From NCBI RefSeq assembly GCF_050920415.1, contig NZ_CP169309.1: a DNA stretch of 64,000 bases; one strand, written 5' to 3'. Positions 21,985 through 54,519 of the stretch are shown here, one piece after another (the stretch's first letter is position 1; each line of letters starts with the position of its first letter). This DNA is from Escherichia coli (lineage in GTDB: Bacteria > Pseudomonadota > Gammaproteobacteria > Enterobacterales > Enterobacteriaceae). Under the pieces are notes generated by a model that was not told the origin of the DNA, searched no databases, and worked only from the letters and a program-made list of their open reading frames with translations. A program made the position numbers and the translations under genes.

Positions 21985-22398
21985 ATGATGGATATTAAAT
22001 TAATCTCTTTGCAAAAACATGGGGATGAGCGTGGTGCATTAATTGCTCTTGAAGAGCAACGAAATATACCTTTCGAAGTCAAAAGAATATATTACATACT
22101 CGAGACTCTTAAGGGAGTAAGACGCGGATTTCATGCGCACAAGGTTACTCGTCAGTTAGCTATTGTAGTCAAGGGAGCTTGTAAATTTCATCTGGATAAT
22201 GGTAAAGAAACAAAGCAGGTGGAACTTAATGATCCAACAATTGCGTTGCTGATAGAACCCTATATATGGCATGAAATGTATGATTTTAGTGATGATTGTG
22301 TGCTGCTTGTAATTGCGGATGATTTCTATAAAGAGTCTGATTATATACGCAATTATGATGATTTTATTAGAAGAGTAAATTCAATTGAGAATTCATAA
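21985..22398 (+). CDS. fdtA: dTDP-4-keto-6-deoxyglucose 3,4-ketoisomerase (FdtA/QdtA-type cupin)
   Basis: 137-aa ORF; small cupin of the WxcM C-terminal/FdtA type (...RGFHAHK...WHEMYDFS...); sits between rmlA and an acetyltransferase/aminotransferase pair. Galacto- versus gluco-configured product cannot be told by eye. Confidence 0.7.
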
Positions 22399-22852
22399 GC
22401 TAAGTGACGTCCAGACAACATCAATTGGTGATGGAACAACTATCTGGCAGTTTGTTGTAATACTAAAAGGTGCTGTAATTGGTAATAATTGCAACATCTG
22501 TGCAAATACCTTGATTGAAAATAACGTTGTAATTGGTAACAATGTCACAGTCAAAAGCGGTGTGTATATTTGGGATGGCGTTAAAATAGAGGATAATGTT
22601 TTTATTGGTCCTTGTGTAGCATTTACAAATGATAAGTATCCTCGCTCTAAAGTCTATCCTGATGAATTTTTGCACACAATAATACGCAAAGGAGCATCAA
22701 TAGGTGCTAATGCAACCATCCTGCCAGGAATTGAAATTGGTGAAAAAGCAATCGTTGGTGCGGGGAGTGTCGTAACCAAAAATGTACCGCCATGCGCAAT
22801 AGTAGTAGGTAATCCAGCTCGATTTATTAAATGGGTAGAGGATAATGAATAA
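22385..22852 (+). CDS. fdtC: dTDP-3-amino-3,6-dideoxyhexose N-acetyltransferase (hexapeptide-repeat, FdtC-type)
   Basis: 155-aa ORF with left-handed beta-helix repeats ([23 protein letters not shown]...); probable TTG start at 22385 overlapping the fdtA 3' end, start uncertain. Confidence 0.7.
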
Positions 22853-23951
22853 AATTGATTTTTTAGATCTTTTTGCAATTAACCAGCGACAGCACAAAGA
22901 ATTAGTCTCTGCGTTTAGTAGGGTGCTAGATTCTGGTTGGTATATCATGGGCGAAGAACTTGAGCAGTTCGAGAAAGAGTTCGCAGAATACTGTGGAGTT
23001 AAGTATTGCATTGGTGTAGCAAATGGCCTTGATGCGTTGATACTAGTATTGAGGGCATGGAAAGAACTCGGCTATCTAGAAGACGGTGACGAGGTATTAG
23101 TACCGGCAAATACATATATTGCTTCTATTCTTGCTATAACAGAGAACAAACTTGTTCCTGTTCTTGTTGAACCAGATATAGAAACTTATAATATTAATCC
23201 TGCTTTAATTGAAAATTACATTACGGAAAAAACTAAAGCAATATTACCGGTTCACTTATATGGTCTATTGTGCAATATGCCAGAAATTAGTGCAATCGCA
23301 AGAAAATATAATCTGTTGATTCTTGAAGATTGTGCACAAGCACATGGTGCAATACGTGATGGTCGCAAAGCTGGAGCTTGGGGGGATGCTGCAGGATTTA
23401 GTTTTTATCCAGGAAAAAACCTTGGAGCTTTGGGGGATGCGGGAGCTGTTACTACAAATAATGCAGAATTATCCTCAACTATAAAAGCTTTGCGAAATTA
23501 TGGGTCACATAAGAAATATGAAAATATTTATCAGGGATTGAATAGTCGATTGGATGAACTGCAAGCAGCCTTATTGCGTGTAAAAATCCATACATTACCG
23601 GAAGATACTGCGATTCGGCAAAGGATTGCTGAAAAATATATTCGTGAAATAAAAAACCCTGCGATTACGTTACCAGTGTACGAAGGCCAAGGTGCGCACG
23701 TTTGGCATTTATTTGTAGTAAGAATCGCTAATCGTGAAAAATTCCAGTCATACTTATCAGAGAAGGGTATCCAAACCTTAATTCACTATCCATTACCACC
23801 CCATAAGCAGCAAGCATATCAAAATATGTCTAGTCTTAGCCTTCCAATTACTGAGCAAATTCATGATGAAGTCATTTCTTTACCTATAAGTCCGGTAATG
23901 AGTGAAGATGATGTCAATTATGTAATCAAAGTGGTCAATGATTACAAGTAA
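22845..23951 (+). CDS. fdtB: dTDP-3-keto-6-deoxyhexose 3-aminotransferase (DegT/DnrJ/EryC1 family, PLP-dependent)
   Basis: 368-aa ORF of DegT/ArnB aminotransferase type; context with fdtA/fdtC. Confidence 0.78.
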
Positions 23952-25213
23952 TGAAAAAATTTCTTCAGGTAACTATATTATCCGCTATCTATACATTCAT
24001 TAAAATGATTGCGGGTTTTATCATCGGTAAGGTAGTAGCAATTTATACAGGGCCATCAGGGGTAGCAATGCTTGGCCAAGTGCAAAGTTTAATCACAATA
24101 GTTGCAGGTACTACTTCTGCACCTGTAAGCACCGGTCTTGTTCGATATACTGCGGAAAATTGGCAAGAAGGACAGGAAGCATGCGCGCCATGGTGGCGCG
24201 CATGCTTAAGGGTTACTCTGTTTTTATTCTTGCTTATTATTCCCGTTGTTATTTTATTGTCGAAAAATATTAGCGAGTTACTTTTTAGCGATGGACAATA
24301 CACATGGTTAATCATTTTCGCATGTTGTATATTGCCATTCTCCATTTTAAATACATTGATCGCTTCAGTTTTAAATGGTCAACAATTCTATAAGCAATAT
24401 ATATTGGTTGGGATGTTTTCTGTATTCATTTCTACTATGTTTATGATTTTGTTGATTGTAGCTTATAATCTTAAAGGTGCATTGATTGCCACGGCTATAA
24501 ATAGTGCTATTGCTGGTCTTGTATTAGTTTTATTTTGTCTCAATAAATCTTGGTTTAGATTTAAATATTGGTGGGGTAAAACGGATAAAGACAAAATTAT
24601 AAAAATTATTCATTATACTCTGATGGCTTTGGTTTCTGTTATCTCCATGCCTACAGCATTGATGTGTATTAGAAAAATATTGATTGCTAAAACTGGTTGG
24701 GAGGATGCAGGGCAATGGCAGGCCGTATGGAAGATATCTGAGGTCTATCTTGGTGTTGTGACAATTGCTTTGTCAACATATTTCTTACCAAGATTGACAA
24801 TTATAAAAACAAGTTTCCTTATAAAAAAAGAGGTAAATAGTACTATATTATACATAGTATCTATTACTTCATTCATGGCGTTGAGTATCTATTTATTCCG
24901 CGATTTGGTAATAACAGTTTTATTTACTGAACAGTTTCGCTCAGCTCGTGAATTATTTTTGTTACAACTCGTAGGGGATGTAATAAAAATTGCTGGTTTT
25001 CTTTATGCATACCCTCTTCAAAGTCAGGGGCATACTAAACTATTCATCAGTTCAGAAGTGATTTTTTCTATGCTCTTTATCGTTACCACCTATATTTTTG
25101 TTGTAAATTATGGAGTACATGGTGCTAACATAAGTTATGTCATTACATATAGTTTATATTTTGTGTTTGCATTTGTGTTTACTAATTTTATTAATGTCAG
25201 AAGAATTAATTAA
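23951..25213 (+). CDS. wzx: O-antigen flippase Wzx
   Basis: 420-aa, about 12-TM, AT-rich membrane protein immediately after the sugar-nucleotide genes. Confidence 0.8.
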   Translation: MKKFLQVTILSAIYTFIKMIAGFIIGKVVAIYTGPSGVAMLGQVQSLITIVAGTTSAPVSTGLVRYTAENWQEGQEACAPWWRACLRVTLFLFLLIIPVVILLSKNISELLFSDGQYTWLIIFACCILPFSILNTLIASVLNGQQFYKQYILVGMFSVFISTMFMILLIVAYNLKGALIATAINSAIAGLVLVLFCLNKSWFRFKYWWGKTDKDKIIKIIHYTLMALVSVISMPTALMCIRKILIAKTGWEDAGQWQAVWKISEVYLGVVTIALSTYFLPRLTIIKTSFLIKKEVNSTILYIVSITSFMALSIYLFRDLVITVLFTEQFRSARELFLLQLVGDVIKIAGFLYAYPLQSQGHTKLFISSEVIFSMLFIVTTYIFVVNYGVHGANISYVITYSLYFVFAFVFTNFINVRRIN

Positions 25214-25222
25214 AAACAGAGG

Positions 25223-26278
25223 TTGAAATTGAAAATAATTATACCTGTCTTAGGATTTGGCAGGGCTGGTGGTGAAAGAGTTCTTTCTAAGCTGGCAACT
25301 GAATTGATGAATTATGGACATGATGTAAGTTTTGTTGTTCCAGATAATAGAACTAATCCATATTATGCTACCACAGCAAAAATCGTCACGAGTAAATCTA
25401 GTCAAAACCGTGTAAAAATATTGAGAATCATTAAAAATTACTATAATCTGTGGCGTAAATGCATAGAATTAAATCCTGATGCTGTAGTTGCTAGTTTTCA
25501 TTTGACTGCCTATCTTGTCGCATTATTACCAATCACCCGTCGTAAGAAATATTATTATATTCAGGCGTATGAAGTTAATTTTTTTGATAATATAATATGG
25601 AAATTAATAGCGGGTTTAACATATTATTTACCGCTTAAAAAAATACTAAATAGTCCTAATTTGCTTCCTCATAAACATGATGATTTTATAGGAGTAGTTC
25701 CTGCAGGAGTAGATTTAAACGTTTTCTATCCGAAACCATCAAATAGGTTATTAAATGGTCACACATCAATAGGGATTATTGGTAGAAAAGAGAAGCACAA
25801 AGGAACTAGCGAAATTATTTCAGTATTGTGTTCACTGGAAAATAAAGTTGGAATTATAATTAATATTGCGATCTATCTTGAAGAAGTTGATAAGGAGCGT
25901 TTAATTGCTGCCGGGTTTCAGGTTAATTTTTTTCCGATTACTTCTGATTTAGAATTGGCATCTTTTTATCGAAGCAATGACATCATGATTGCAGCTGGGT
26001 TAATTGAAGATGGCGCTTTCCATTATCCTTGTGCTGAATCAATGGCTTGTGGTTGTCTTGTTATTTCAAATTATGCGCCACTTACTGAAACTAACAGTGT
26101 ACTTAAATTAGTCAAGTTTGATGCTTGCAAACTTGGTAAAGCAATTAATCTTTGTCTCAATCTTGACCTAGAAGAAAAAAGCAAAGAAATCCAATCTAAT
26201 ATTTCTGTGTTGAATAAATATGACTGGAAAATTGTTGGTGAAACTTTCAATAGTTTATTGTTAGATGCAAATAAATAG
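25223..26278 (+). CDS. O-antigen glycosyltransferase (GT1/GT4-like)
   Basis: About 350-aa ORF with non-ATG start (TTG at 25223 or 25229; AGAGG RBS at 25217-25221 favours 25229); N-terminus KIIIPVLGFGRAGGERV... typical of GT4-like transferases. Confidence 0.7.
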   Translation: MKLKIIIPVLGFGRAGGERVLSKLATELMNYGHDVSFVVPDNRTNPYYATTAKIVTSKSSQNRVKILRIIKNYYNLWRKCIELNPDAVVASFHLTAYLVALLPITRRKKYYYIQAYEVNFFDNIIWKLIAGLTYYLPLKKILNSPNLLPHKHDDFIGVVPAGVDLNVFYPKPSNRLLNGHTSIGIIGRKEKHKGTSEIISVLCSLENKVGIIINIAIYLEEVDKERLIAAGFQVNFFPITSDLELASFYRSNDIMIAAGLIEDGAFHYPCAESMACGCLVISNYAPLTETNSVLKLVKFDACKLGKAINLCLNLDLEEKSKEIQSNISVLNKYDWKIVGETFNSLLLDANK

Positions 26279-26298
26279 TATACGTTGATGGGGAAAAT

Positions 26299-26856
26299 AT
26301 GAATATTGTTAAAACTGATATTCCAGATCTGATCGTTCTTGAACCAAAAGTGTTTAGTGATGAACGCGGCTTTTTTATGGAGAGTTATAATCAGATTGAA
26401 TTTGAGAAGACAATAGGAAGGCACGTAAATTTTGTTCAGGATAATCATTCAAAATCTAGTAAAGGCGTACTACGTGGGTTACATTATCAATTAGCACCGT
26501 ATGCACAGGCTAAATTAGTTCGATGTGTTGTAGGTCAGGTATTTGATGTTGCTGTTGATCTTAGAAAAAATTCACCAACGTTCAAAAAATGGTTTGGAAT
26601 AACCCTTTCCGCAGAAAATAAACGACAATTATGGATACCTGAAGGATTTGCTCATGGTTTCTTGGTGACCAGTGATGAAGCTGAGTTCATTTATAAAACA
26701 ACGAACTACTATGCTCCTGGTCATCAGCAAGCAATTATTTACAATGATCCTATTTTAAACATCGATTGGCCTTTCTGCAGTAGTGCTCTGTCATTATCGC
26801 AAAAAGATCAAGAAGCAAAATTATTTTCAGAATTATTGGACAGTGAACTGTTCTAA
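26299..26856 (+). CDS. rmlC: dTDP-4-dehydrorhamnose 3,5-epimerase
   Basis: 185-aa ORF MNIVKTDIPDLIVLEPKVFSDERGFFMESYN...; canonical RmlC cupin; separated from rmlBDA. Confidence 0.92.
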   Translation: MNIVKTDIPDLIVLEPKVFSDERGFFMESYNQIEFEKTIGRHVNFVQDNHSKSSKGVLRGLHYQLAPYAQAKLVRCVVGQVFDVAVDLRKNSPTFKKWFGITLSAENKRQLWIPEGFAHGFLVTSDEAEFIYKTTNYYAPGHQQAIIYNDPILNIDWPFCSSALSLSQKDQEAKLFSELLDSELF

Positions 26857-26923
26857 TAAAGTGTGCCACCTTATCCGTCTGAAGGATAGGTGGTTGCTTA
26901 TATTTTTTGAGTATGTTTGTATA

Positions 26924-27886
26924 ATGACAGAAAATAGTCCGAAATATAAACACGATAAAAGCTTAATAAGTTTTATCTACTTATTTTTTATATTTACACT
27001 TATTGTAGGCTTCATTATCGCAAATACCCAGTTTTTGGGGCGAAGTAGAGACTATGATAATTATATACAGATCTTTTCTGGTGAAGAAGGGGAGGGGGTT
27101 CTTGAATTATTTTATCGCGGATTGATGTTAATAACGACCAGCTATGAAATTATCATTTTTATAATTTTAACATGTTCTTTTTTTATAAAGGCAAGGTTTC
27201 TTGCTAACTATTCGCGTAATTTTTCAGGCTTGACCTTATTCTTTGTTTATTATGCAAGCGTTGCACTTTGGGTTTTAGATTATACTCAATTCAGAAATGG
27301 TCTATGTATTTCCATTTTAATGTTTTCCGTATACTATTTATTTATAAATAAACCGACTTATTTTTATTTCTCGCTATTATGTGCAATTGCAACTCATTGG
27401 TCTGCTTTGCCTTTTTTGCTTTTATATCCTTTTGTCTATTCAAAAAAAATAAGACACCTTGGTTATTTTTGTTTCAGTATTCTTGTTTTGATTGCGATCT
27501 CAGGAGAAGGAAAAGAGATCATTTCTTTTATAAGAAATTTTGGAGTGGGACAAAAAATAGGAAACGAAGCTGGTGTAAATTTAATAAATTCATTATCCCT
27601 TACCGCTATTTTCTGGTTTGTTATTAGTTACATATCAAGCATTGGAAATGAAAGGAGAAATTTAAGACTTTTCTTTTGTTATGGTGTCATGCAATACGTG
27701 ACTTTTAGCCTTTTCTCTCTACCTGTTATGGCTTTCCGTATTTTGGAAATGTATTTTTTCCTTATGTTAACCATTGGGGTGTTTATTAAGCAAAAAAAGA
27801 ATTATTATTTTGTTTTTTGCAAAGTGTTAATTTTATTGTATCTAACATACTATTATCATATGGTTTTTGGAGTGATTAATGTGTAA
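26924..27886 (+). CDS. wzy: O-antigen polymerase Wzy
   Basis: Listed ORF starts at 26783; ATG at 26924 (MTENSPKYKHDKSLISFIYLFF...) gives about 320 aa; very AT-rich, multi-TM, with a large predicted loop. Confidence 0.7.
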   Translation: MTENSPKYKHDKSLISFIYLFFIFTLIVGFIIANTQFLGRSRDYDNYIQIFSGEEGEGVLELFYRGLMLITTSYEIIIFIILTCSFFIKARFLANYSRNFSGLTLFFVYYASVALWVLDYTQFRNGLCISILMFSVYYLFINKPTYFYFSLLCAIATHWSALPFLLLYPFVYSKKIRHLGYFCFSILVLIAISGEGKEIISFIRNFGVGQKIGNEAGVNLINSLSLTAIFWFVISYISSIGNERRNLRLFFCYGVMQYVTFSLFSLPVMAFRILEMYFFLMLTIGVFIKQKKNYYFVFCKVLILLYLTYYYHMVFGVINV

Positions 27887-28766
27887 GGCTAAGGTGTTGG
27901 CTATAATTGTTACTTACAACCCGGAAATTATTCGTTTGACGGAATGTATTAACTCTTTAGCCCCACAAGTTGAGAGAATAATTCTTGTAGATAATGGCTC
28001 AAATAATAGTCATTTGATAAAAAATATCATTATTAATAACCTTGAAATTATTTTGCTTTCGGAAAACAAAGGCATTGCATTTGCTCAGAACCATTGTGTT
28101 AAGAAGGGTCTGGAAGCAAAAGAGTTTGACTATTTATTTTTCTCAGATCAGGATACTTGCTTTCCTAGCGATGTTATTGAAAAACTTAAGAGTACATTTA
28201 CGAAAAATAATAAAAAAGGTAAAAATGTTGCTTGTGCTTCTCCTTTTTTTAAAGACCATCGTTCAAATTATATGCATCCGTCAGTCAGCCTAAATATTTT
28301 TACGAGTACAAAAGTTATATGTAGTGAAGTAGACGATGATCTTTATCCCTCGCATGTTATTGCTTCTGGGATGTTAATGTCTCGCGAGGCATGGCGCGTC
28401 GTCGGACCATTTTGTGAAAAACTCTTTATAGACTGGGTTGATACAGAATGGTGTTGGCGTGCATTAGCTAATAGTATGATTATTGTTCAGACACCATCAG
28501 TCATCATTTCTCATGAACTTGGGTATGGGCAGAAAATTTTTGCTGGTCGATCTGTTACAATACATAATTCTTTCAGAAATTTTTATAAAATACGTAATGC
28601 AATATACTTAATGCTGCATTCAAATTATAGCTTCAAGTATCGTTATCATGCTTTTTTTCATGCGACAAAGAATATTGTATTTGAAATTTTATATTCGAAA
28701 GAAAAATTAAATTCACTGAAGGTTTGTTTTAAAGCTGTACGTGATGGTATGTTCAATAATTTTTAA
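27879..28766 (+). CDS. O-antigen glycosyltransferase, GT2 family (probable rhamnosyltransferase)
   Basis: 295-aa ORF; N-terminus LAIIVTYNPE...VDNGSNNS and a DxD-like region (FFSDQDT) typical of GT2. Confidence 0.72.
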   Translation: MCKAKVLAIIVTYNPEIIRLTECINSLAPQVERIILVDNGSNNSHLIKNIIINNLEIILLSENKGIAFAQNHCVKKGLEAKEFDYLFFSDQDTCFPSDVIEKLKSTFTKNNKKGKNVACASPFFKDHRSNYMHPSVSLNIFTSTKVICSEVDDDLYPSHVIASGMLMSREAWRVVGPFCEKLFIDWVDTEWCWRALANSMIIVQTPSVIISHELGYGQKIFAGRSVTIHNSFRNFYKIRNAIYLMLHSNYSFKYRYHAFFHATKNIVFEILYSKEKLNSLKVCFKAVRDGMFNNF

Positions 28767-28796
28767 TACAAAAATAGTTAGGCTCAAGGTGTTTAA

Positions 28797-29873
28797 ATGG
28801 AAGAAAATAATATGAAGACGGTCGCTGTAGTTGGCACAGTGGGTGTTCCTGCTTGTTATGGTGGGTTTGAATCACTTGTTCAGAATCTAATTGATTATCA
28901 ATCTGATGGTATACAATATCAGATATTTTGCTCTTCAAAAAAATATAATAAAAAATTAAAAAATTATAAAAATGCAGAATTAATCTATTTGCCGATAAAT
29001 GCCAATGGCGTCTCTAGCATAATTTATGACATTATGTGTTTAATTATTTGTTTATTCAAAAGGCCAGATGTTGTTTTAATATTGGGGGTATCTGGTTGTT
29101 TATTTCTACCAATTTATAAACTATTTTCAAAATCAAAGATCATTGTCAACATCGATGGGCTTGAATGGCGTAGAAATAAATGGGGAACGTTTGCTAAGAA
29201 ATTTCTCAAAATATCTGAGGCGATATCTATTAGAATAGCTGATATTATCATTTCAGATAATCAAGCAATAGCTGATTATGTGGAAAATAAGTACAATAAA
29301 AAAAGCGTAGTTATAGCTTATGGGGGAGATCATGCTACTAATCTTAGTACACCGATAGACGATGATCAAAAAAAAGATGGTTATTATTTGGGGCTTTGTA
29401 GGATAGAGCCTGAGAATAATATAGAAATGATTTTGAATGCCTTCATTAATACAGATAAAAAAATTAAATTTATGGGTAATTGGGATAATAGCGAGTATGG
29501 GCGCCAGCTAAAAAAATATTATTCAAACTATCCAAATATCACACTACTAGAACCTAACTATAATATCGAAGAACTTTATAAACTAAGAAAAAATTGCCTT
29601 GCATACATTCATGGACACTCGGCTGGTGGAACAAACCCTTCTTTAGTTGAAGCGATGCATTTTAATATTCCTATTTTTGCTTTCGATTGTGACTTTAATC
29701 GTTACACAACTAATAATTTAGCTCATTACTTTAATGATTCTGAACAACTGACCTCATTAGCAGACAGTTTGTCTTTTGGAAATCTTAAATGTCAAGTATT
29801 AGATTTAAAAAAATATGCTGAAGATATGTATAACTGGAGGCATATAGCTGCTATGTATGAATCTATTTATTAA
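28797..29873 (+). CDS. O-antigen glycosyltransferase (GT1-like)
   Basis: 358-aa ORF (alternative start MKTVAVVG at 28812); GT1-like C-terminal motifs; last gene of the O-unit block. Confidence 0.68.
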   Translation: MEENNMKTVAVVGTVGVPACYGGFESLVQNLIDYQSDGIQYQIFCSSKKYNKKLKNYKNAELIYLPINANGVSSIIYDIMCLIICLFKRPDVVLILGVSGCLFLPIYKLFSKSKIIVNIDGLEWRRNKWGTFAKKFLKISEAISIRIADIIISDNQAIADYVENKYNKKSVVIAYGGDHATNLSTPIDDDQKKDGYYLGLCRIEPENNIEMILNAFINTDKKIKFMGNWDNSEYGRQLKKYYSNYPNITLLEPNYNIEELYKLRKNCLAYIHGHSAGGTNPSLVEAMHFNIPIFAFDCDFNRYTTNNLAHYFNDSEQLTSLADSLSFGNLKCQVLDLKKYAEDMYNWRHIAAMYESIY

Positions 29874-30039
29874 ACGCATTAACAATAATATAATTGACCT
29901 TATATAGCTATCAGAGTAAAAATGTAACGCTGATTTTTTTGTTAAATGATGCGCATTATATATTTAATGATTAAAATACTCTTGATCAAATAAAACTATT
30001 TAATTAATAATGTAAAATTTCATTATGCTATTTAAGATG

Positions 30040-30108
30040 TGAAAAATAACTTAAATAAATGATGGGATATATTTATATTATCCCGGTTATAGACAAGCCC
30101 AGGGAAAG
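30040..30108 (+). repeat. Degenerate duplicate of the 5' end of the H-repeat (ISAs1) transposase gene
   Basis: 30057-30108 (aaatgatgggatatatttatattatcccggttatagacaagcccagggaaag) is about 85% identical to 30257-30308 inside the transposase ORF; the ATG equivalent is mutated. Confidence 0.6.
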
Positions 30109-30244
30109 ATCATCAGAAGTACACTTTTTGTACTAAATAATTCGCATTTTATGTTTAAAAATATGAGATATTCCTCATTACCTGAAGCTGTTTTTTATTG
30201 CTTATACATGATCAAATACTCCTTACATAATTAAGGAGAACAAA

Positions 30245-31381
30245 ATGGAACTTAAAAAATTGATGGAACATATTTCTATTATCCCCGATTACAGACAAGC
30301 CTGGAAAGTGGAACATAAATTATCGGATATTCTACTGTTGACTATTTGTGCCGTCATTTCTGGTGCAGAAGGCTGGGAAGATATAGAGGATTTTGGAGAA
30401 ACACATCTCGATTTTTTGAAGCAATATGGTGATTTTGAAAATGGTATTCCTGTTCACGATACCATTGCCAGAGTTGTATCCTGTATCAGTCCTGCAAAAT
30501 TTCACGAGTGCTTTATTAACTGGATGCGAGATTGCCATACTTCAGATGATAAAGACGTCATCGCAATTGATGGAAAAACACTCCGGCATTCTTATGACAA
30601 GAGTCGCCGTAAGGGAGCGATTCATGTCATTAGTGCGTTCTCAACAATGCACAGTCTGGTCATCGGACAGATCAAGACGGATGAGAAATCCAATGAGATT
30701 ACAGCCATCCCTGAACTTCTTAACATGTTGGATATTAAAGGGAAAATTATCACAACTGATGCGATGGGTTGCCAGAAAGATATTGCAGAGAAGATACAAA
30801 AACAGGGAGGTGATTATTTATTCGCTGTAAAAGGAAATCAGCGTCGGCTTAATAAAGCCTTTGAAGAAAAATTCCCACTGAAAGAATTAAATAATCCAGA
30901 GCATGACAGTTATGCAATTAGTGAAAAGAGTCACGGCAGAGAAGATATCCGTCTTCATATTGTTTGCGATGACCCTGATGAACTTATTGATTTCACGTTT
31001 GAATGGAAAGGACTGAAAAAATTATGCGTGGCAGTCTCCTTTCGCTCAATAATAGCAGAGCAAAAGAAAGAGCCCGAAATGATGGTCAGATATTATATCA
31101 GTTCTGCTGATTTAACCGCTGAGAAGTTTGCGACAGCGATTTGAAATCACTGGCACGTGGAGAATAAGCTGCACTGGCGTCTGGACGTGGTAATGAATGA
31201 AGACGATTGTAAAATAAGAAGAGGAAATGCAGCAGAATTATTTTCTGGGATACGGCACATTGCTATTAATATTTTGACGAATGATAAGGTATTCAAGACA
31301 GGATTAAGACGTAAGATGCGAAAAGCAGCCATGGACAGAAACTATCTCGCGTCAGTCCTTGCGGGGAGCGGGCTTTACTAG
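30245..31381 (+). mobile_element. ISAs1-family (H-repeat-associated) transposase gene interrupted by a single in-frame TGA (pseudogene)
   Basis: 299-aa ORF (30245-31144) and 74-aa ORF (31157-31381) are in the same frame, separated only by TGA at 31142-31144; the combined about 378-aa product has the ISAs1 motif ...[21 protein letters not shown]... with the stop at a conserved Arg position. Confidence 0.8.
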
Positions 31382-31453
31382 TCCTTCCTCGCTCAGTGAC
31401 AGAATATTGAATGAATAGCATTAAAATTATTAAATAATATGGTTTAATTCGAC

Positions 31454-33081
31454 ATGAACTTTAAGAATATAATTAGAATAATACTACCTTTTTTTATTTT
31501 CTTGAGTATTTTACTTTACTCAGGAAGGGCGGATAGTGTTTTGTTATTTACTATCGAATACACACTTGCAAGTATGGCAATCTTTCTGATAAAAAGAAAG
31601 TTTATAAGCAATATCTTGTGGGGGATTTATCTCTCAATTTTAGGTGTACAGGCAGCATCGCTATTTAGTTCAGGACAATATTTGATGCCTCTTGCCTTGT
31701 CGAATGCTGCAGAAGTTGAATCGCTAGGCATTGGCGAGGTAATCAAGGTTTTTTCTATTTTTATTTTATTTGTTATAGTTTCATTCGTTACGATGCCTTC
31801 TGGTGCTCTAGTCGGCCGTATTAAATATTATAAATTTAATTTTTTCTGTATAGTATTATTGCTTGTGTGTTCTTTCATAAGCACGGGACCGGTATATGCT
31901 TTTTATGAAACAGCAAAATTGTACTATTTACAGCAAACCTTTAAGCCTAGTGAGAAGATCGGTGATGCCGGGAAATCTTTTTTAAAAACAAGTGTTTTTA
32001 TTAACCCTCTACAGAATAACAACAACTTCAAAGGGCGTAATGTTATTGTAATCTTTGCTGAGGGATTTTCATCGGAGATTATTGGTAATTCAAAAATGGC
32101 GCATTTTCCAATTACGCCTAATTTAGATAAGTTATCTACTGAAGCACTAAGTTTTAAAAATTATTATAACCATACAGCAGTAACCTTTCGAGGTTTAAGA
32201 GGCCAGTTAACTTCTGGCTATCAATTTCGTGATGGGTTAACTGATGCTGGTACTGGTATTGCACAATTATCTAACGTAGAAATTAATAATATTTATCTTC
32301 ATCGTCAAACATCTTTGCCGAATATATTGAAAGAGTATGGCTATAAAAGTTATTTTATAGCGTCTACAGAAAAAATAGCCCACTCAACACTATGTTGAAA
32401 ACGCTTAATTTTGATAAAGTTCTTGGTATGGGAGATTTTATTGGTTATCAACGCGACAGAATGACTGATAAGCAAACATTTAATGCACTGCAATATTTTT
32501 TACGTTCTCAAGAAAATAAAAACGAACGCTTTTTTATTGGTGTGTACCCATCTGGTACTCATCATGGTCAAGATAGTCCAAATGAAAAATATTTTGATGG
32601 TAGCAATCCTCTCTACAATAAATTCTATAACTATGATTTTCAGTTGGGGAAGTTTGTTGATTTTTTTCGGCGCAGTTCATTTTATGGCAATACGTTGTTG
32701 ATAATTACATCGGATCATTCTACATTTCCTTCGACAGAATATAAGAAATCATTTAACAGCGATTCTCGTTATTTTGTGGACAAAATACCATTTCTGATCA
32801 TTGGGAAAAATATTACGCCTGAAGTTTTAGATGCAGGAGGTGAAAATTCTTTAAGTTTCGCGCCAACAATATTGCACATGTTAGGGATTCAGTATTCAAT
32901 GAATTATTTTTTGGGGTGTTCTCTTTTTGATAAGACGTGCACATCACCATTCTCACATCTTTCTGCTATTGGTAGTGATTATTTCAATACAGGCAAAGAA
33001 AATCATGTTGAACTAATTCAAAATAATAGTGGTAATGAATTAATAAAATTAGCCGAACGTTTTTATAACATTAGTGGCTAA
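31454..33081 (+). pseudogene. Sulfatase/alkaline-phosphatase-superfamily membrane enzyme (LtaS/phosphoglycerol- or phosphoethanolamine-transferase-like), frameshifted
   Basis: 314-aa ORF (31454-32398) has N-terminal TM helices then a sulfatase-like domain (NVIVIFAEGFSSE...); the domain continues in another frame as a 229-aa ORF (32392-33081; ...LLIITSDHSTFPS...); frame change lies near an A6 run at 32370-32375. Confidence 0.6.
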
Positions 33082-44378: not shown

Positions 44379-44424
44379 TTTCTTATTCCTCTTTAAACCT
44401 GTCTGAACCGTTATCAACCGCGCA

Positions 44425-44461
44425 ATAAAAAAGCCCCCGGAAGGTGATCTTCCGGGGGCTT
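44425..44461 (-). terminator. his operon attenuator (leader terminator hairpin)
   Basis: On the minus strand agcccccggaagatcaccttccgggggct followed by a U-run, between hisL and hisG. Confidence 0.85.
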
Positions 44462-44523
44462 TCTCATACGTTCATGCACCACTGGAAGATCTGAATGTCT
44501 TCCAGCACACATCGCCTGAAAGA

Positions 44524-44574
44524 CTAGTCAGGATGATGGTGATGATGGTGGTGTTTAAATTGAACGCGTGTCAT
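44524..44574 (-). CDS. hisL: his operon leader peptide (7 consecutive His codons)
   Basis: Reverse complement reads ATG ACA CGC GTT CAA TTT AAA CAC CAC CAT CAT CAC CAT CAT CCT GAC TAG = MTRVQFKHHHHHHHPD*. Confidence 0.92.
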   Translation of the reverse strand: MTRVQFKHHHHHHHPD

Positions 44575-44797
44575 AAAAGTCTCTGTGAATGTTTATTCAA
44601 CTGATGTCTTTTAACCTAAACCACTTTCACGTTAGAAAGCAAGGGCTTTTTTATATATTTTATGGCGATGGATTTGTTTAATGAATGAGCGGGGAAAGGA
44701 GAGGGCCAGGAGTGGCTACGTTAAAAAAGTAATCGTGAAAATATGTCTTTAAAACCCTCAAGAACATTGTGTTCTGTAACTAAAGTGGGCTTGGTTC

Positions 44798-44905
44798 CTG
44801 CCGGATGCGGCGTGAATGCCTTATCTGGTCTACAAATGTTGCCTAAATTCAATATATTGATGTTTTTGTAGGACTGATAAGCGGAGCGCATCAGGCAATT
44901 GTATA
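44798..44905. repeat. REP/BIME-type palindromic repeats between hisL and yeeZ
   Basis: gcctgccggatgcggcgtgaatgccttatctggtctaca and tgtaggactgataagcggagcgcatcaggca resemble the REP consensus. Confidence 0.6.
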
Positions 44906-45000
44906 TTTGCTAACAGTTTCGATTTCATTCATAGAATGAATTGTCAGTTTTGATACGCTAGCGTAGCCTTATAGATCTAAGGTGTATCAGGAGATAACGG

Positions 45001-45825
45001 ATGAAAAAGGTCGCAATTGTCGGGTTAGGGTGGTTAGGTATGCCGCTAGCGATGTCACTTTCAGCGCGAGGCTGGCAAGTCACCGGGAGTAAAACCACAC
45101 AAGATGGCGTCGAAGCGGCCCGAATGAGTGGCATTGATAGTTATCTGCTTCGCATGGAACCTGAGTTAGTTTGCGATTCTGACGATCTGGATGCCCTGAT
45201 GGATGCTGATGCGCTGGTCATCACGCTTCCGGCACGTCGTAGCGGCCCCGGCGATGAGTTCTATTTACAAGCGGTACAAGAGTTAGTGGATAGTGCGCTG
45301 GCTCATCATATTCCCCGCATTATTTTTACCAGCTCAACGTCTGTCTATGGCGACGCACAAGGCACCGTTAAAGAAACGACCCCGCGTAATCCGGTGACCA
45401 ACAGTGGACGAGTATTAAAAGAACTTGAAGACTGGCTGCACAATTTACCCGGTACTTCAGTCGATATTCTGCGTCTTGCGGGCCTGGTCGGGCCGGAACG
45501 TCATCCTGGTCGCTTTTTTGCCGGAAAAACCGCGCCTGATGGTGAACATGGTGTCAATTTAGTCCATTTAGAAGATGTTATTGGCGCTATCACCCTGTTG
45601 TTACAGGCACCTAAAGGCGGACACATCTATAATATATGTGCGCCAGCTCACCCTGCGCGTAATGTTTTCTATCCGCAGATGGCCCGTTTACTGGGACTGG
45701 AACCTCCGCAGTTCAGAAATAGTCTGGACAGCGGCAAAGGTAAGATTATTGATGGCAGTCGGATTTGTAATGAACTGGGATTTGAATACCAGTATCCCGA
45801 TCCGCTGGTAATGCCGCTGGAGTAA
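45001..45825 (+). CDS. yeeZ: NAD(P)-binding epimerase/dehydratase-family protein YeeZ
   Basis: 274-aa ORF MKKVAIVGLGWLGMPLAMSL... with Rossmann GxGxxG; position next to the his operon. Confidence 0.85.
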   Translation: MKKVAIVGLGWLGMPLAMSLSARGWQVTGSKTTQDGVEAARMSGIDSYLLRMEPELVCDSDDLDALMDADALVITLPARRSGPGDEFYLQAVQELVDSALAHHIPRIIFTSSTSVYGDAQGTVKETTPRNPVTNSGRVLKELEDWLHNLPGTSVDILRLAGLVGPERHPGRFFAGKTAPDGEHGVNLVHLEDVIGAITLLLQAPKGGHIYNICAPAHPARNVFYPQMARLLGLEPPQFRNSLDSGKGKIIDGSRICNELGFEYQYPDPLVMPLE

Positions 45826-47066: not shown

Positions 47067-48425
47067 ATGTCGCATAACGTTACTCCAAACACCTCTCGCG
47101 TGGAATTGCGTAAAACGCTTACGTTAGTTCCGGTTGTAATGATGGGTCTTGCCTATATGCAGCCGATGACGCTGTTTGATACATTTGGTATCGTTTCAGG
47201 CCTCACGGATGGTCATGTGCCGACAGCCTATGCGTTCGCATTGATTGCGATCCTGTTTACGGCTCTGAGCTACGGGAAGCTGGTTCGCCGCTATCCTTCT
47301 GCTGGCTCTGCATACACTTACGCCCAGAAATCCATTAGCCCGACCGTCGGCTTTATGGTGGGTTGGTCTTCTCTGCTCGACTATCTGTTCGCGCCGATGA
47401 TCAACATTCTGCTGGCGAAAATCTATTTTGAAGCTCTGGTGCCTTCCATCCCATCGTGGATGTTTGTGGTGGCGCTGGTGGCCTTTATGACCGCCTTTAA
47501 CCTGCGTAGTCTGAAATCCGTAGCGAACTTCAACACCGTCATCGTGGTGTTGCAGGTAGTGCTGATCGCGGTGATTCTGGGCATGGTTGTTTATGGCGTA
47601 TTTGAAGGTGAAGGCGCTGGTACGCTGGCGAGCACTCGTCCGTTCTGGTCTGGCGATGCGCATGTTATTCCGATGATTACCGGGGCGACAATCCTGTGCT
47701 TCTCCTTTACCGGCTTTGACGGCATCAGCAACCTGTCGGAAGAAACCAAAGATGCAGAGCGCGTGATCCCGCGTGCGATTTTCCTGACCGCGCTGATCGG
47801 CGGCATGATCTTCATCTTTGCAACTTACTTCCTGCAACTGTATTTCCCGGATATCTCTCGCTTTAAAGATCCGGATGCGTCACAGCCTGAAATCATGCTG
47901 TACGTTGCGGGTAAAGCGTTCCAGGTTGGCGCGCTGATCTTCTCCACCATTACCGTACTGGCGTCCGGTATGGCGGCGCACGCAGGCGTGGCGCGTCTGA
48001 TGTACGTAATGGGTCGTGACGGCGTATTCCCGAAAAGCTTCTTCGGTTATGTGCACCCGAAATGGCGTACTCCGGCAATGAACATCATCCTGGTTGGCGC
48101 GATTGCTCTGCTGGCAATCAACTTCGACCTGGTAATGGCTACGGCGCTGATTAACTTTGGTGCGCTGGTGGCGTTCACCTTCGTTAACCTGTCGGTTATC
48201 TCGCAGTTCTGGATCCGTGAGAAGCGTAACAAGACGCTGAAAGATCACTTCCAGTATCTGTTCCTGCCGATGTGTGGTGCGCTGACTGTAGGTGCGCTGT
48301 GGGTTAACCTGGAAGAAAGCTCAATGGTTCTGGGGCTGATCTGGGCGGCAATCGGTCTGATTTACCTGGCTTGCGTCACCAAGAGCTTCCGTAACCCGGT
48401 TCCGCAGTACGAAGACGTTGCATAA
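47067..48425 (+). CDS. plaP: Putrescine importer PlaP (APC-family amino acid/polyamine permease)
   Basis: [32 protein letters not shown]...; 452 aa, polytopic. Confidence 0.88.
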
Positions 48426-48464
48426 TCTTACAAGCCGGATGACATAATCATCCGGTAAATCTCA

Positions 48465-48497
48465 AAAAGCCGGAGTTTGTCGCTCCGGCTTTTTTGT
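48465..48497. terminator. Bidirectional rho-independent terminator between convergent plaP and sbcB
   Basis: aaaaagccggagtttgtcgctccggcttttttg: perfect hairpin flanked by A-run and T-run. Confidence 0.75.
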
Positions 48498-48498
48498 T

Positions 48499-49926
48499 TC
48501 AGACGATCTCTTCCGCGTACTGCCAAAGCGCTTTTAACAGCGCCACTTTCTCTTTGTCATCGGCATATTGTTGTGCCAGCATCTGCAATTCATCTGCATA
48601 GCCCTGCAAAAACTCTGGCGTGAAGACCTGGCGGCGGTGCTCCAGCCAGCGTTGCTGCTCGGCATAATCCAGCGTCCCCGGGAAGTTGCGTGCTCGATAA
48701 TTGAACAACAGCTTTTCAATCCGTTTATCAACAAAAGTGATATCCAGTGCCGGTAAATTACGCGGCTCGGTTTCAAGCACAATTTTCATTGCTGCACGAT
48801 CGGCGTCACTGAAAAAGCCATTATAAAGCTGTGCATCCACGTTATCTGAAGGCGTAAACGGTTCGGCTTCGGCGAATATCGCCACCACTTTTTCACGCAC
48901 TTGCGGATTTTCACGCAGAATTTTCAGGTTATCGAGGCAATGCTGACGATTAATTCCCAGTCGGTCGGCATCTTCCGGGCGTAGCGTATTCGCCTGGGCC
49001 AGCACCGGACATTTATTGATATGCACCAGTTTAACCGGAACGGCGGCGTTATCGCCAAGATCGGCTTTTGCGGTATATAAACGCTCGCGCAATGTGTCGC
49101 TATCCAGCTCCAGTAATGGCGAAATGTCTCCTGCCAAATCCACCATAATTACGGCATTGCGATTTTCAGGATGCCACGCCAGCGGTGCTACCCAGCTGGT
49201 ATTGCCGCGCCATGCCCCAAACATTCCGGAAACGTGAACCAGGGGTTTCATCTGCGGAACATCAATCAACGCCATCAGTTTGTGTTTATTGCGATGGGTA
49301 AAGAGATAATCAAATAGGCGTGGCTGACGCATTTTTACCAGCTTTGCCATCGCAATAGTGGCGTACACATCAGCCATCGCATCGTGGGCGTTGCTATGTT
49401 CAATACCATTCGCTTTGGTTAAATGCTCAAGGCGAAAGCTCGGTAGACCGTCATCATTTTCAGGCCAGTTTATTCCTTCCGGGCGCAGGGCATAACAGGC
49501 ACGCATAACATCCAGTAAATCCCAGCGCGAGTTATCATGCTGCCAGCTCCAGGCGTAAGGATCGTAGAAATTACGATAAAAAACGTTGCGTGTGACTTCG
49601 TCGTCGAAACGCACATTGTTGTAGCCCAGAATACAGGTCTTCGGTACGGTAAAAAGCGAGTGAATACGGGCGGCAAACGCGGCTTCGTTTTCTCCTTTCG
49701 CCCGTGCTTCCTGCGGGGTAATACCGGTAATTAATACTGCTCCAGGCTGCGGTAAATAGTCATCCGCGGGCTTGCAGTAAAAAACTTCGGGTTCGCCGAT
49801 GACGTTGAATTCGTTATCAGTGCGAATGGCTGCGAACTGTGCAGGGCGATCTAACGCGGGGTGCGTTCCAAAGGTTTCGTAATCGTGAAACAAAAAGGTA
49901 GATTGTTGCTTACCGTCATTCATCAT
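48499..49926 (-). CDS. sbcB: Exodeoxyribonuclease I
   Basis: Listed ORF 48499-49974; Met at 49926 (MMNDGKQQSTFLFHDYETFGTHPALDRPAQFAAIRTD...) gives 475 aa. Confidence 0.93.
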   Translation of the reverse strand: MMNDGKQQSTFLFHDYETFGTHPALDRPAQFAAIRTDNEFNVIGEPEVFYCKPADDYLPQPGAVLITGITPQEARAKGENEAAFAARIHSLFTVPKTCILGYNNVRFDDEVTRNVFYRNFYDPYAWSWQHDNSRWDLLDVMRACYALRPEGINWPENDDGLPSFRLEHLTKANGIEHSNAHDAMADVYATIAMAKLVKMRQPRLFDYLFTHRNKHKLMALIDVPQMKPLVHVSGMFGAWRGNTSWVAPLAWHPENRNAVIMVDLAGDISPLLELDSDTLRERLYTAKADLGDNAAVPVKLVHINKCPVLAQANTLRPEDADRLGINRQHCLDNLKILRENPQVREKVVAIFAEAEPFTPSDNVDAQLYNGFFSDADRAAMKIVLETEPRNLPALDITFVDKRIEKLLFNYRARNFPGTLDYAEQQRWLEHRRQVFTPEFLQGYADELQMLAQQYADDKEKVALLKALWQYAEEIV

Positions 49927-53651: not shown

Positions 53652-53751
53652 TTCCTGTTTTATTCAATGAGGGTTGCCCGGTAACCCTCATTGCTCATTG
53701 TTTCTTTTCTGTGTATCACCGTCATCATTCCCATCTGATAACCTATTGAAA

Positions 53752-54048
53752 TTAGCGATAGCCTTCTTCTGTATGCAGCAAGGCAAAAAGTTCTGCAACT
53801 CCATTGTTATTAACCGCACTGGTTACTAACACATTGTGCGCTCCAGCTTCCCGTAACCAACTTTTCACCAAAGATATTTGTTCCATACTGGCTAAATCTG
53901 CTTTGGTGACTACTCCAATGACCGGGCGATTCATTGACGAGGTAAAGCCTGGCGAAAAAGGTGACCACGGTGCGTCCGCATTAAGTACCAGCGCGATAAT
54001 GTCTGCTTCGCAGGCACTGACTAACAGAGCACTGTAGAGGCTGCGGTT
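53752..54048 (-). pseudogene. yoeF: EutP/PduV-family GTPase remnant lacking the N-terminal P-loop (yoeF-like)
   Basis: Stop-to-stop frame on the minus strand: ...[84 protein letters not shown]; has C-terminal EutP/PduV character but no GxxxxGKT/S. Confidence 0.6.
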
Positions 54049-54519
54049 TTATCGGTGAGGACTGGCAGCAAGATTTCCAGCCTTTTGACGGTGGGCCTGT
54101 GCAATCGTTATCAGATTCGTATAGCGATTATTCAGTGCTGCTATTGATAGCAGCTGAAAGCGAGATATCCGTACCAGAATAGCTCCCTCATTCTGAGGGA
54201 ACGACGGTAATTTTGATTGCAGAACACAATGCCCGTTTGCTGAATGGTCCGGCTGGTGGGGCTGTAGCATTAATCCATTATTTGAATGAAATCAGTCATG
54301 CCAGAGAAACCGCTGTCAATGACGCATTTTGTCGGACGTTAACACGAGGAAGTCTGGCTATTCCGCAATGCCATCTTCTTTCGTAATGGATTGAGAATGC
54401 TGGATTTTTAATTATATTACGCGCAGTATTAATCGCGTAAATGTTTTGCGGTCAGCAACAGTGGGGGAACCATTGTTCTGTTCAATGAATACCATCATAC
54501 AATTGAATCAGGAGTCGGT

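Follow-up and report, generated by a model that had tools for sequence, protein, structure and literature searches.

A common tsuAB-less haplotype at the plaP–sbcB junction of Escherichia coli, with a predicted two-way plaP terminator

Introduction

In the 64,000-nucleotide stretch of E. coli DNA analysed here (the window), the genes plaP and sbcB converge across a very short spacer, at a place where the thiosulfate-uptake pair yeeE/yeeD (tsuA/tsuB, together tsuAB) might have been expected. The original prediction, made from the letters of the window alone, treated this as a strain-specific difference in sulfur-source uptake, reached either by a clean loss of the pair or by retention of the state before its insertion. 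This locus therefore raises the questions of whether the pair is really missing, how widely the arrangement is shared, what the two hairpins in the spacer are, and in which direction the underlying event ran.

Results

The junction in the window lacks tsuAB

The window is 100% identical over 9 kb to E. coli MFDS1022581 (NZ_CP169399.1), with the same annotation, and this source was the only genome to reach at least 99% identity over the 1.1-kb and 9-kb junction regions. Two intact genes meet here with 73 bp between their stop codons, and the coordinates given for this convergence in the original prediction were exact. The TAA of plaP ends at 48425, and the reverse-strand TGA of sbcB occupies 48499–48501. 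PlaP is 100% identical to its K-12 counterpart (the same protein accession, WP_000019197.1), and SbcB is 99% identical. The features of the junction are as follows.

47067–48425, + strand: plaP (yeeF), putrescine/proton symporter, intact, 452 aa (RefSeq annotation; APC-family transporter models match)
48426–48498, no strand: 73-bp spacer between the convergent stops, the tsuAB-less (‘empty’) allele of the slot (sequence)
48434–48456, no strand: Hairpin 1, GCCGGATGA-CATAA-TCATCCGGT, 9 pairs, 5-nt loop, 23 nt (fold)
48464–48498 (fold 48464–48494), no strand: Hairpin 2, predicted plaP intrinsic terminator (folds on both strands; conserved motif)
48499–49926, − strand: sbcB, exodeoxyribonuclease I, intact, 475 aa (NCBIfam NF008746, 813 bits; annotation)

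A K-12 derivative has the order plaP–tsuA(yeeE)–tsuB(yeeD)–sbcB, with the plaP and sbcB stops 1,520 bp apart, which confirms the K-12 gene order given in the original prediction. Deleting part of the K-12 spacer would not by itself yield the empty one of the window, which has Hairpin 1 in addition and a different terminator loop. A tblastn search with K-12 TsuA and TsuB gave no match in the 64-kb window. The source chromosome was searched with a chimeric query, which joined 3 kb of the strain’s O2/O50 O-antigen genes to the K-12 tsuAB sequence. This query matched NZ_CP169399.1 in one place (the O-antigen part only) and many other O2/O50 strains in two. Since the O2/O50 strains with tsuAB, which give two places, serve as a positive control, the single match place shows that the source chromosome holds no tsuAB elsewhere at megablast sensitivity, that is, for copies of roughly 85% identity or more. 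The pair is thus missing from the junction, as had been claimed, and at this sensitivity also from the rest of the chromosome.

We also consider whether tsuAB could sit elsewhere, on the chromosome or a plasmid, leaving the capacity for uptake unchanged. There is precedent for such an arrangement, as a few E. coli have two tsuAB places and the collection includes one place on a plasmid; none was found here. The single place in NZ_CP169399.1 compared to two in the tsuAB-carrying O2/O50 controls, the lack of a TsuA or TsuB match in the window, and the complementary counts of empty and tsuAB-positive genomes described below together make this reading exceedingly improbable.

The empty junction is common within E. 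coli

We find tsuAB DNA in 4,209 of 5,426 complete E. coli genomes. In about 1,212 of the same 5,426 (22%), the 3′ ends of plaP and sbcB adjoin directly, as they do in the window. The two groups together account for 5,421 of the 5,424 genomes that gave any match, so that a genome has, in essence, one state or the other. The empty junction is also found in UTI89, 536, Nissle 1917 and ST131. When the 135-bp junction alone is compared, 133 genomes match the window at 99% identity or more, and the unrelated STEC strain 2013C-4282 matches it at 100%.

Strains without yeeD and yeeE were reported in a study of O157 flanking regions (Iguchi et al. 2011, PMC3158064), and our literature searches for a phylogroup-level statement on yeeE/yeeD gave only this paper. 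The tsuAB-less junction is therefore a common, documented haplotype that was already known. The description of it as strain-specific was wrong, since the same junction occurs in about 22% of E. coli (some 1,212 genomes), in E. whittamii and, in its empty state, in most of the species listed below (44 of 72), and had been described in 2011.

A recent, clean deletion of yeeED confined to this isolate is very improbable. In its favour, the local allele is rare, as only the source itself reaches at least 99% identity over the 1.1-kb and 9-kb regions. Against this, the 73-bp spacer is common to about 1,212 genomes, with 133 of them at or above 99% over 135 bp and one STEC strain at 100%. E. whittamii has the spacer as well, and a fresh deletion would not recreate a shared spacer complete with Hairpin 1. 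The presence of one spacer type in about 1,212 E. coli genomes and in E. whittamii instead indicates that the event long predates the strain.

Some tsuAB-less E. coli, those of ST131 type among them, have an IS200C element exactly between TTTTTTGTT and the sbcB stop (L083, NZ_AP021998.1 800–1510), which corresponds to window position 48498/48499. About 430 genomes carry IS200C at the junction (1,212 empty minus 782 uninterrupted), and an IS200-like insertion between sbcB and yeeF was reported in 2011 (PMC3158064).

Hairpin 2 is the predicted terminator of plaP

Hairpin 2 lies 38 nt past the plaP stop and 3 nt short of the sbcB stop. It is built from an A5 run (48464–48468), the stem GCCGGAG (48469–48475), a loop, the stem CTCCGGC (48483–48489) and a T6 run (48490–48495) followed by GTT, giving the linear order AAAAA-stem-loop-stem-TTTTTTGTT. 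Its core is thus a perfect 7-bp GCCGGAG/CTCCGGC helix, which is lengthened by A-U pairs. The 86-nt segment that contains both hairpins (48420–48505) folds with a minimum free energy of −34.0 kcal/mol on the + strand (z = −6.4) and −32.4 kcal/mol on the − strand (z = −5.0), and none of 200 shuffled sequences folded equally well. With folds on both strands and the A5 and T6 flanks, the anatomy of a two-way terminator that had been read into the second hairpin is confirmed.

A strict motif of A-run, CCGGAG, loop, CTCCGG and T-run follows plaP in 58 of the 72 species loci among the matches listed, the rest being close variants, and the motif is kept across genera in both empty and occupied loci among these matches. 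In K-12 the plaP terminator reads AAACCGGAG...CTCCGGTTTTTTT, after which comes the tsuA regulatory region. We identify Hairpin 2 as plaP’s own terminator, here predicted to work in both directions. It shows the GC-rich stem, the flanking A- and T-runs, the location at convergent stops and the conservation that characterise bidirectional intrinsic terminators. A simple consensus terminator scan did not list Hairpin 2, probably because the extended stem takes up the A/T runs, so that too few T residues remain beyond it for the rules of the tool; as the folds are unambiguous, we judge this to be a limitation of the scan.

The two flanking runs behave differently across the listed loci. The mean A-run length is 6.4 in empty loci (n = 42) and 3.55 in occupied loci (n = 20; Mann–Whitney p = 1.3e-6, uncorrected for phylogeny), and each of the four genera with both states shows a difference of this sign. 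The T-run is near equal in the same loci (6.9 empty vs 7.35 occupied). A longer A-run in empty loci is what would be expected if sbcB transcripts take their U-tract from this run only where the locus is empty. In this model the T-run would yield the U-tract of the plaP RNA and the A-run that of the sbcB RNA, and the plaP terminator, 3 nt from the sbcB stop, would halt transcripts coming from either side. The small general point is that a neighbour’s terminator has a longer A-tract where the gene pair is missing, as expected if it were selected for two-way work.

Hairpin 1 belongs to the Escherichia empty allele

Hairpin 1 is specific to the empty allele of Escherichia, and the K-12 allele lacks it. 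E. whittamii and B2-type strains have it too, and the bases that differ there still pair (G-U to A-U, G-C to G-U). What other genera have at this position are small hairpins unrelated to it, or palindromes of REP-like form. Rfam covariance models gave no match at E ≤ 1 on either strand of 48000–48900.

The slot across Enterobacteriaceae

An SbcB scan with one genome per species gave at least 80 loci, of which 72 have both sbcB and plaP. The listed loci do not include E. coli, E. albertii, E. fergusonii or Salmonella, and E. whittamii is the nearest outgroup examined; in Salmonella LT2, yeeF presumably adjoins sbcB. Among these 72 listed loci, 44 are empty, 20 are occupied by tsuAB and 8 hold other cargo. 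The 44 empty loci have 58–166 bp between the stop codons, and the spacer of E. whittamii, likewise 73 bp long, departs from the one in the window at 4 positions. In all 20 occupied listed loci, tsuA-tsuB has an identical position and orientation. Escherichia, Citrobacter, Kosakonia and Lelliottia each show both states.

Occupied loci, which come from at least 10 genera, follow a single plan of plaP terminator, ATAACC...GGTTAT inverted repeat, tsuA-tsuB, GC-rich hairpin and sbcB. All listed genera with tsuAB have this inverted repeat, ATAACC-N19-GGTTAT, upstream of tsuA (for example L001 4600–4650), and it is missing from the window. It probably serves as the binding site of a regulator.

Other occupants of the slot are varied. 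In Raoultella (L025 7530–10228) the slot holds a 700-aa EF-G paralogue and a 145-aa ORF that has no Pfam match, and in another Enterobacteriaceae species (L060 7547–9768) a 517-aa sulfatase-family protein and a 213-aa ORF. In Escherichia sp. MOD1-EC7003 (L003 7426–7709) a transposase C-terminus is found about 70 bp from the sbcB stop, with the contig ending inside it. This is another IS insertion at the junction, and judged by eye the family may be IS256-like.

Neighbouring loci

The yefM-yoeB toxin–antitoxin pair, which in K-12 lies between hisL and yeeZ (L001 517–1019), is missing at window 44417–45001, where the spacer has REP-like palindromes at about 44802–44835 and 44868–44900; its absence from the Sakai strain was reported in 2011 (PMC3158064). 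The O-antigen cluster at window 22385–33081 is of type O2/O50, with wzx and wzy annotated as O2/O50 family. There are O2/O50 strains both with and without tsuAB, so the O-antigen and tsuAB loci have been reassorted.

At window 53750–54400 (L002 11853–12487), RefSeq annotates a fragment of an EutP/PduV-family pseudogene and a cobalamin-biosynthesis pseudogene between tmaR (yeeX) and cobU, and the NZ_CP169399.1 record has no prophage or IS genes annotated between these two genes. In K-12 this interval is, we assume, the site of the CP4-44 prophage.

The plaP gene itself is unusually conserved. Across genera its DNA identity to the window is bimodal (listed loci L004–L082), at 87–89% in some Citrobacter and Enterobacter and in Kluyvera georgiana, Pseudocitrobacter and Intestinirhabdus, and at 80–84% in other congeners; the genes neighbouring plaP are 70–81% identical to the window. 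PlaP and SbcB distances do not track each other (Mantel r = 0.12, listed loci). The bimodal identity and this mismatch suggest that plaP alleles have been exchanged between genera.

Loss or gain of the tsuAB cassette

We compared the divergence of TsuA with that of SbcB in 20 listed species. Their pairwise distances are correlated (Mantel r = 0.74, p ≤ 0.0005) and similar in size (0.118 vs 0.136). The rank correlation of TsuA and SbcB identity to K-12 carried little information (rho = 0.15), and we prefer the pairwise-distance Mantel test as it has more power. Within E. coli, tsuAB diversity is ordinary and like that of core genes. The shared slot and flanks, the tracking of SbcB by TsuA and the core-like diversity indicate that tsuAB has sat in the slot for a long time and been inherited with it, and they favour the view that empty alleles arose by loss.

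We see no scar of such a loss. Using blastn-short, a comparison of 45 empty with 21 occupied spacers (listed loci) gave nothing beyond the shared terminator region at E ≤ 1e-3. One 10-nt match, TCAAAAAGCC, between the window spacer and the last K-12 tsuB codons (E = 0.075) was judged to be chance, because it overlaps the A-run and the start of the stem. In K-12 we found no direct repeats bracketing the tsuAB cassette, and no recombinase gene is annotated at it; in these respects the slot shows no signature of mobile-element insertion or excision. As there is neither a cassette remnant or scar nor flanking direct repeats, the deletion is inferred and not directly seen, and the direction of the event is unproven. 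The excess of empty over occupied loci (44 vs 20, listed) also fits an ancestral empty state.

This alternative deserves weight. It holds that the empty junction is primitive, that some lineage acquired tsuAB by insertion downstream of the plaP terminator, together with a regulatory region and hairpin of its own, and that the pair then reached K-12-type E. coli and other genera via homologous recombination at the conserved flanks. Empty loci are indeed the majority (44 of 72 species among the matches listed) and have no deletion scar, a complete and functional-looking two-way terminator abuts sbcB in many genera, and E. whittamii shares the empty spacer with B2-type E. coli. The signs of plaP exchange between genera, moreover, make the transfer of alleles via the flanks plausible. 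Set against these points, at least 10 genera have tsuAB in precisely this slot and between the same elements, and TsuA has diverged in step with SbcB (Mantel r = 0.74), as expected of an old resident and not of a recent spreader. The core-gene-like diversity of tsuAB in E. coli and the lack of flanking mobile-element signatures also argue against it, and we consider a primitive empty state unlikely, although a real contender. The choice offered in the original prediction, between clean loss and a state before insertion, concerns an ancient event and not one in this strain; the evidence from the flanks and from TsuA–SbcB divergence leans towards loss.

Discussion

In our account, which we hold to be very probable as a whole, the window carries a tsuAB-null haplotype that is one side of a long-standing and common presence/absence polymorphism, with no event in this strain. 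In the alternative haplotype, that of K-12, a cassette separates the plaP terminator from the sbcB stop; it is made up of a regulatory region, the genes tsuA and tsuB, and a further GC-rich hairpin. The null haplotype would most likely stem from an old deletion of this cassette, after which it would have been inherited and reassorted through homologous recombination in the recombination-prone his/O-antigen neighbourhood. It would leave the plaP terminator serving both genes, and a strain lacking the accessory TsuA/TsuB thiosulfate importer would depend on CysPUWA. In short, we see here an ordinary convergent-gene junction with a conserved terminator of predicted two-way function, in a known and common haplotype.

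The physiological consequence is probably small, since CysPUWA is the main thiosulfate route. YeeE/YeeD mediate thiosulfate uptake alongside CysPUWA (PMC11073785). In K-12 the role of YeeE/YeeD is visible only when cysPUWA is deleted, and for a mutant lacking both systems thiosulfate does not serve as the only source of sulfur (PMC11073785). By analogy with K-12, a tsuAB-less strain should still take up thiosulfate through CysPUWA. The claim of an altered capacity for sulfur-source uptake is thus overstated, as YeeE/YeeD form a second route behind CysPUWA in K-12 (PMC11073785). About one in five sequenced E. coli lacks this accessory importer, among them the probiotic Nissle 1917 and major lineages of extra-intestinal pathogens, and caution is needed when the sulfur physiology of K-12 is extrapolated to tsuAB-less strains.

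It is conceivable that the dimorphism is non-neutral. In such a scenario, which we put forward as speculative and on balance doubtful, the presence or absence of tsuAB would be under selection and would cross species within Enterobacteriaceae, tied to the availability of thiosulfate in the niche (for instance inflamed gut vs extra-intestinal sites), and the terminator A-tract would have been lengthened for two-way work at each cassette loss.

Bidirectional terminators are widespread in E. coli, as published 3′-end mapping has shown. Those between convergent genes likewise consist of a GC-rich stem-loop bordered by an A-tract and, at its opposite end, by a T-tract; we see no structural difference from Hairpin 2, whose activity here is a prediction. 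The topic is also taken up in a preprint (bioRxiv 10.1101/2022.10.23.513370).

Hairpin 1 invites comparison with REP elements, as both have an outer stem of the form GCCGGAT...ATCCGG (for example the REP at window 44802–44835). REP elements, however, are imperfect palindromes of about 35 nt with a CTAC/GTAG tail, whereas Hairpin 1 has 23 nt, is followed by AAAT and has no inner imperfect stem. We rejected its classification as a bona fide REP on length, inner stem and the missing CTAC/GTAG tail; a remnant of such an element is the most that it could be.

Compared with K-12, the window shares the flanking genes (PlaP 100%, SbcB 99%) and the same terminator core, CCGGAG...CTCCGG with a T-run, directly after plaP. 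The 1,520-bp stretch of K-12 differs in its content, which comprises tsuA with its regulatory region, tsuB and another hairpin, CCTCCGCC...GGCGGAGG. Hairpin 1 is missing from K-12, whose A-run is just 3 long and whose sbcB ends with TAA, where the window has TGA. A closer likeness is that to B2-type E. coli (UTI89, 536, Nissle 1917, ST131), which share the gene order, the 73-bp spacer and both hairpins, with 97.8% identity over the 135-bp junction. A few substitutions differ; in the ST131-type locus L083 the closing pair of Hairpin 1 is A-U, compared to G-U in the window. Unlike ST131-type junctions, the window carries no IS200C insertion, and its spacer runs uninterrupted from the plaP stop to that of sbcB.
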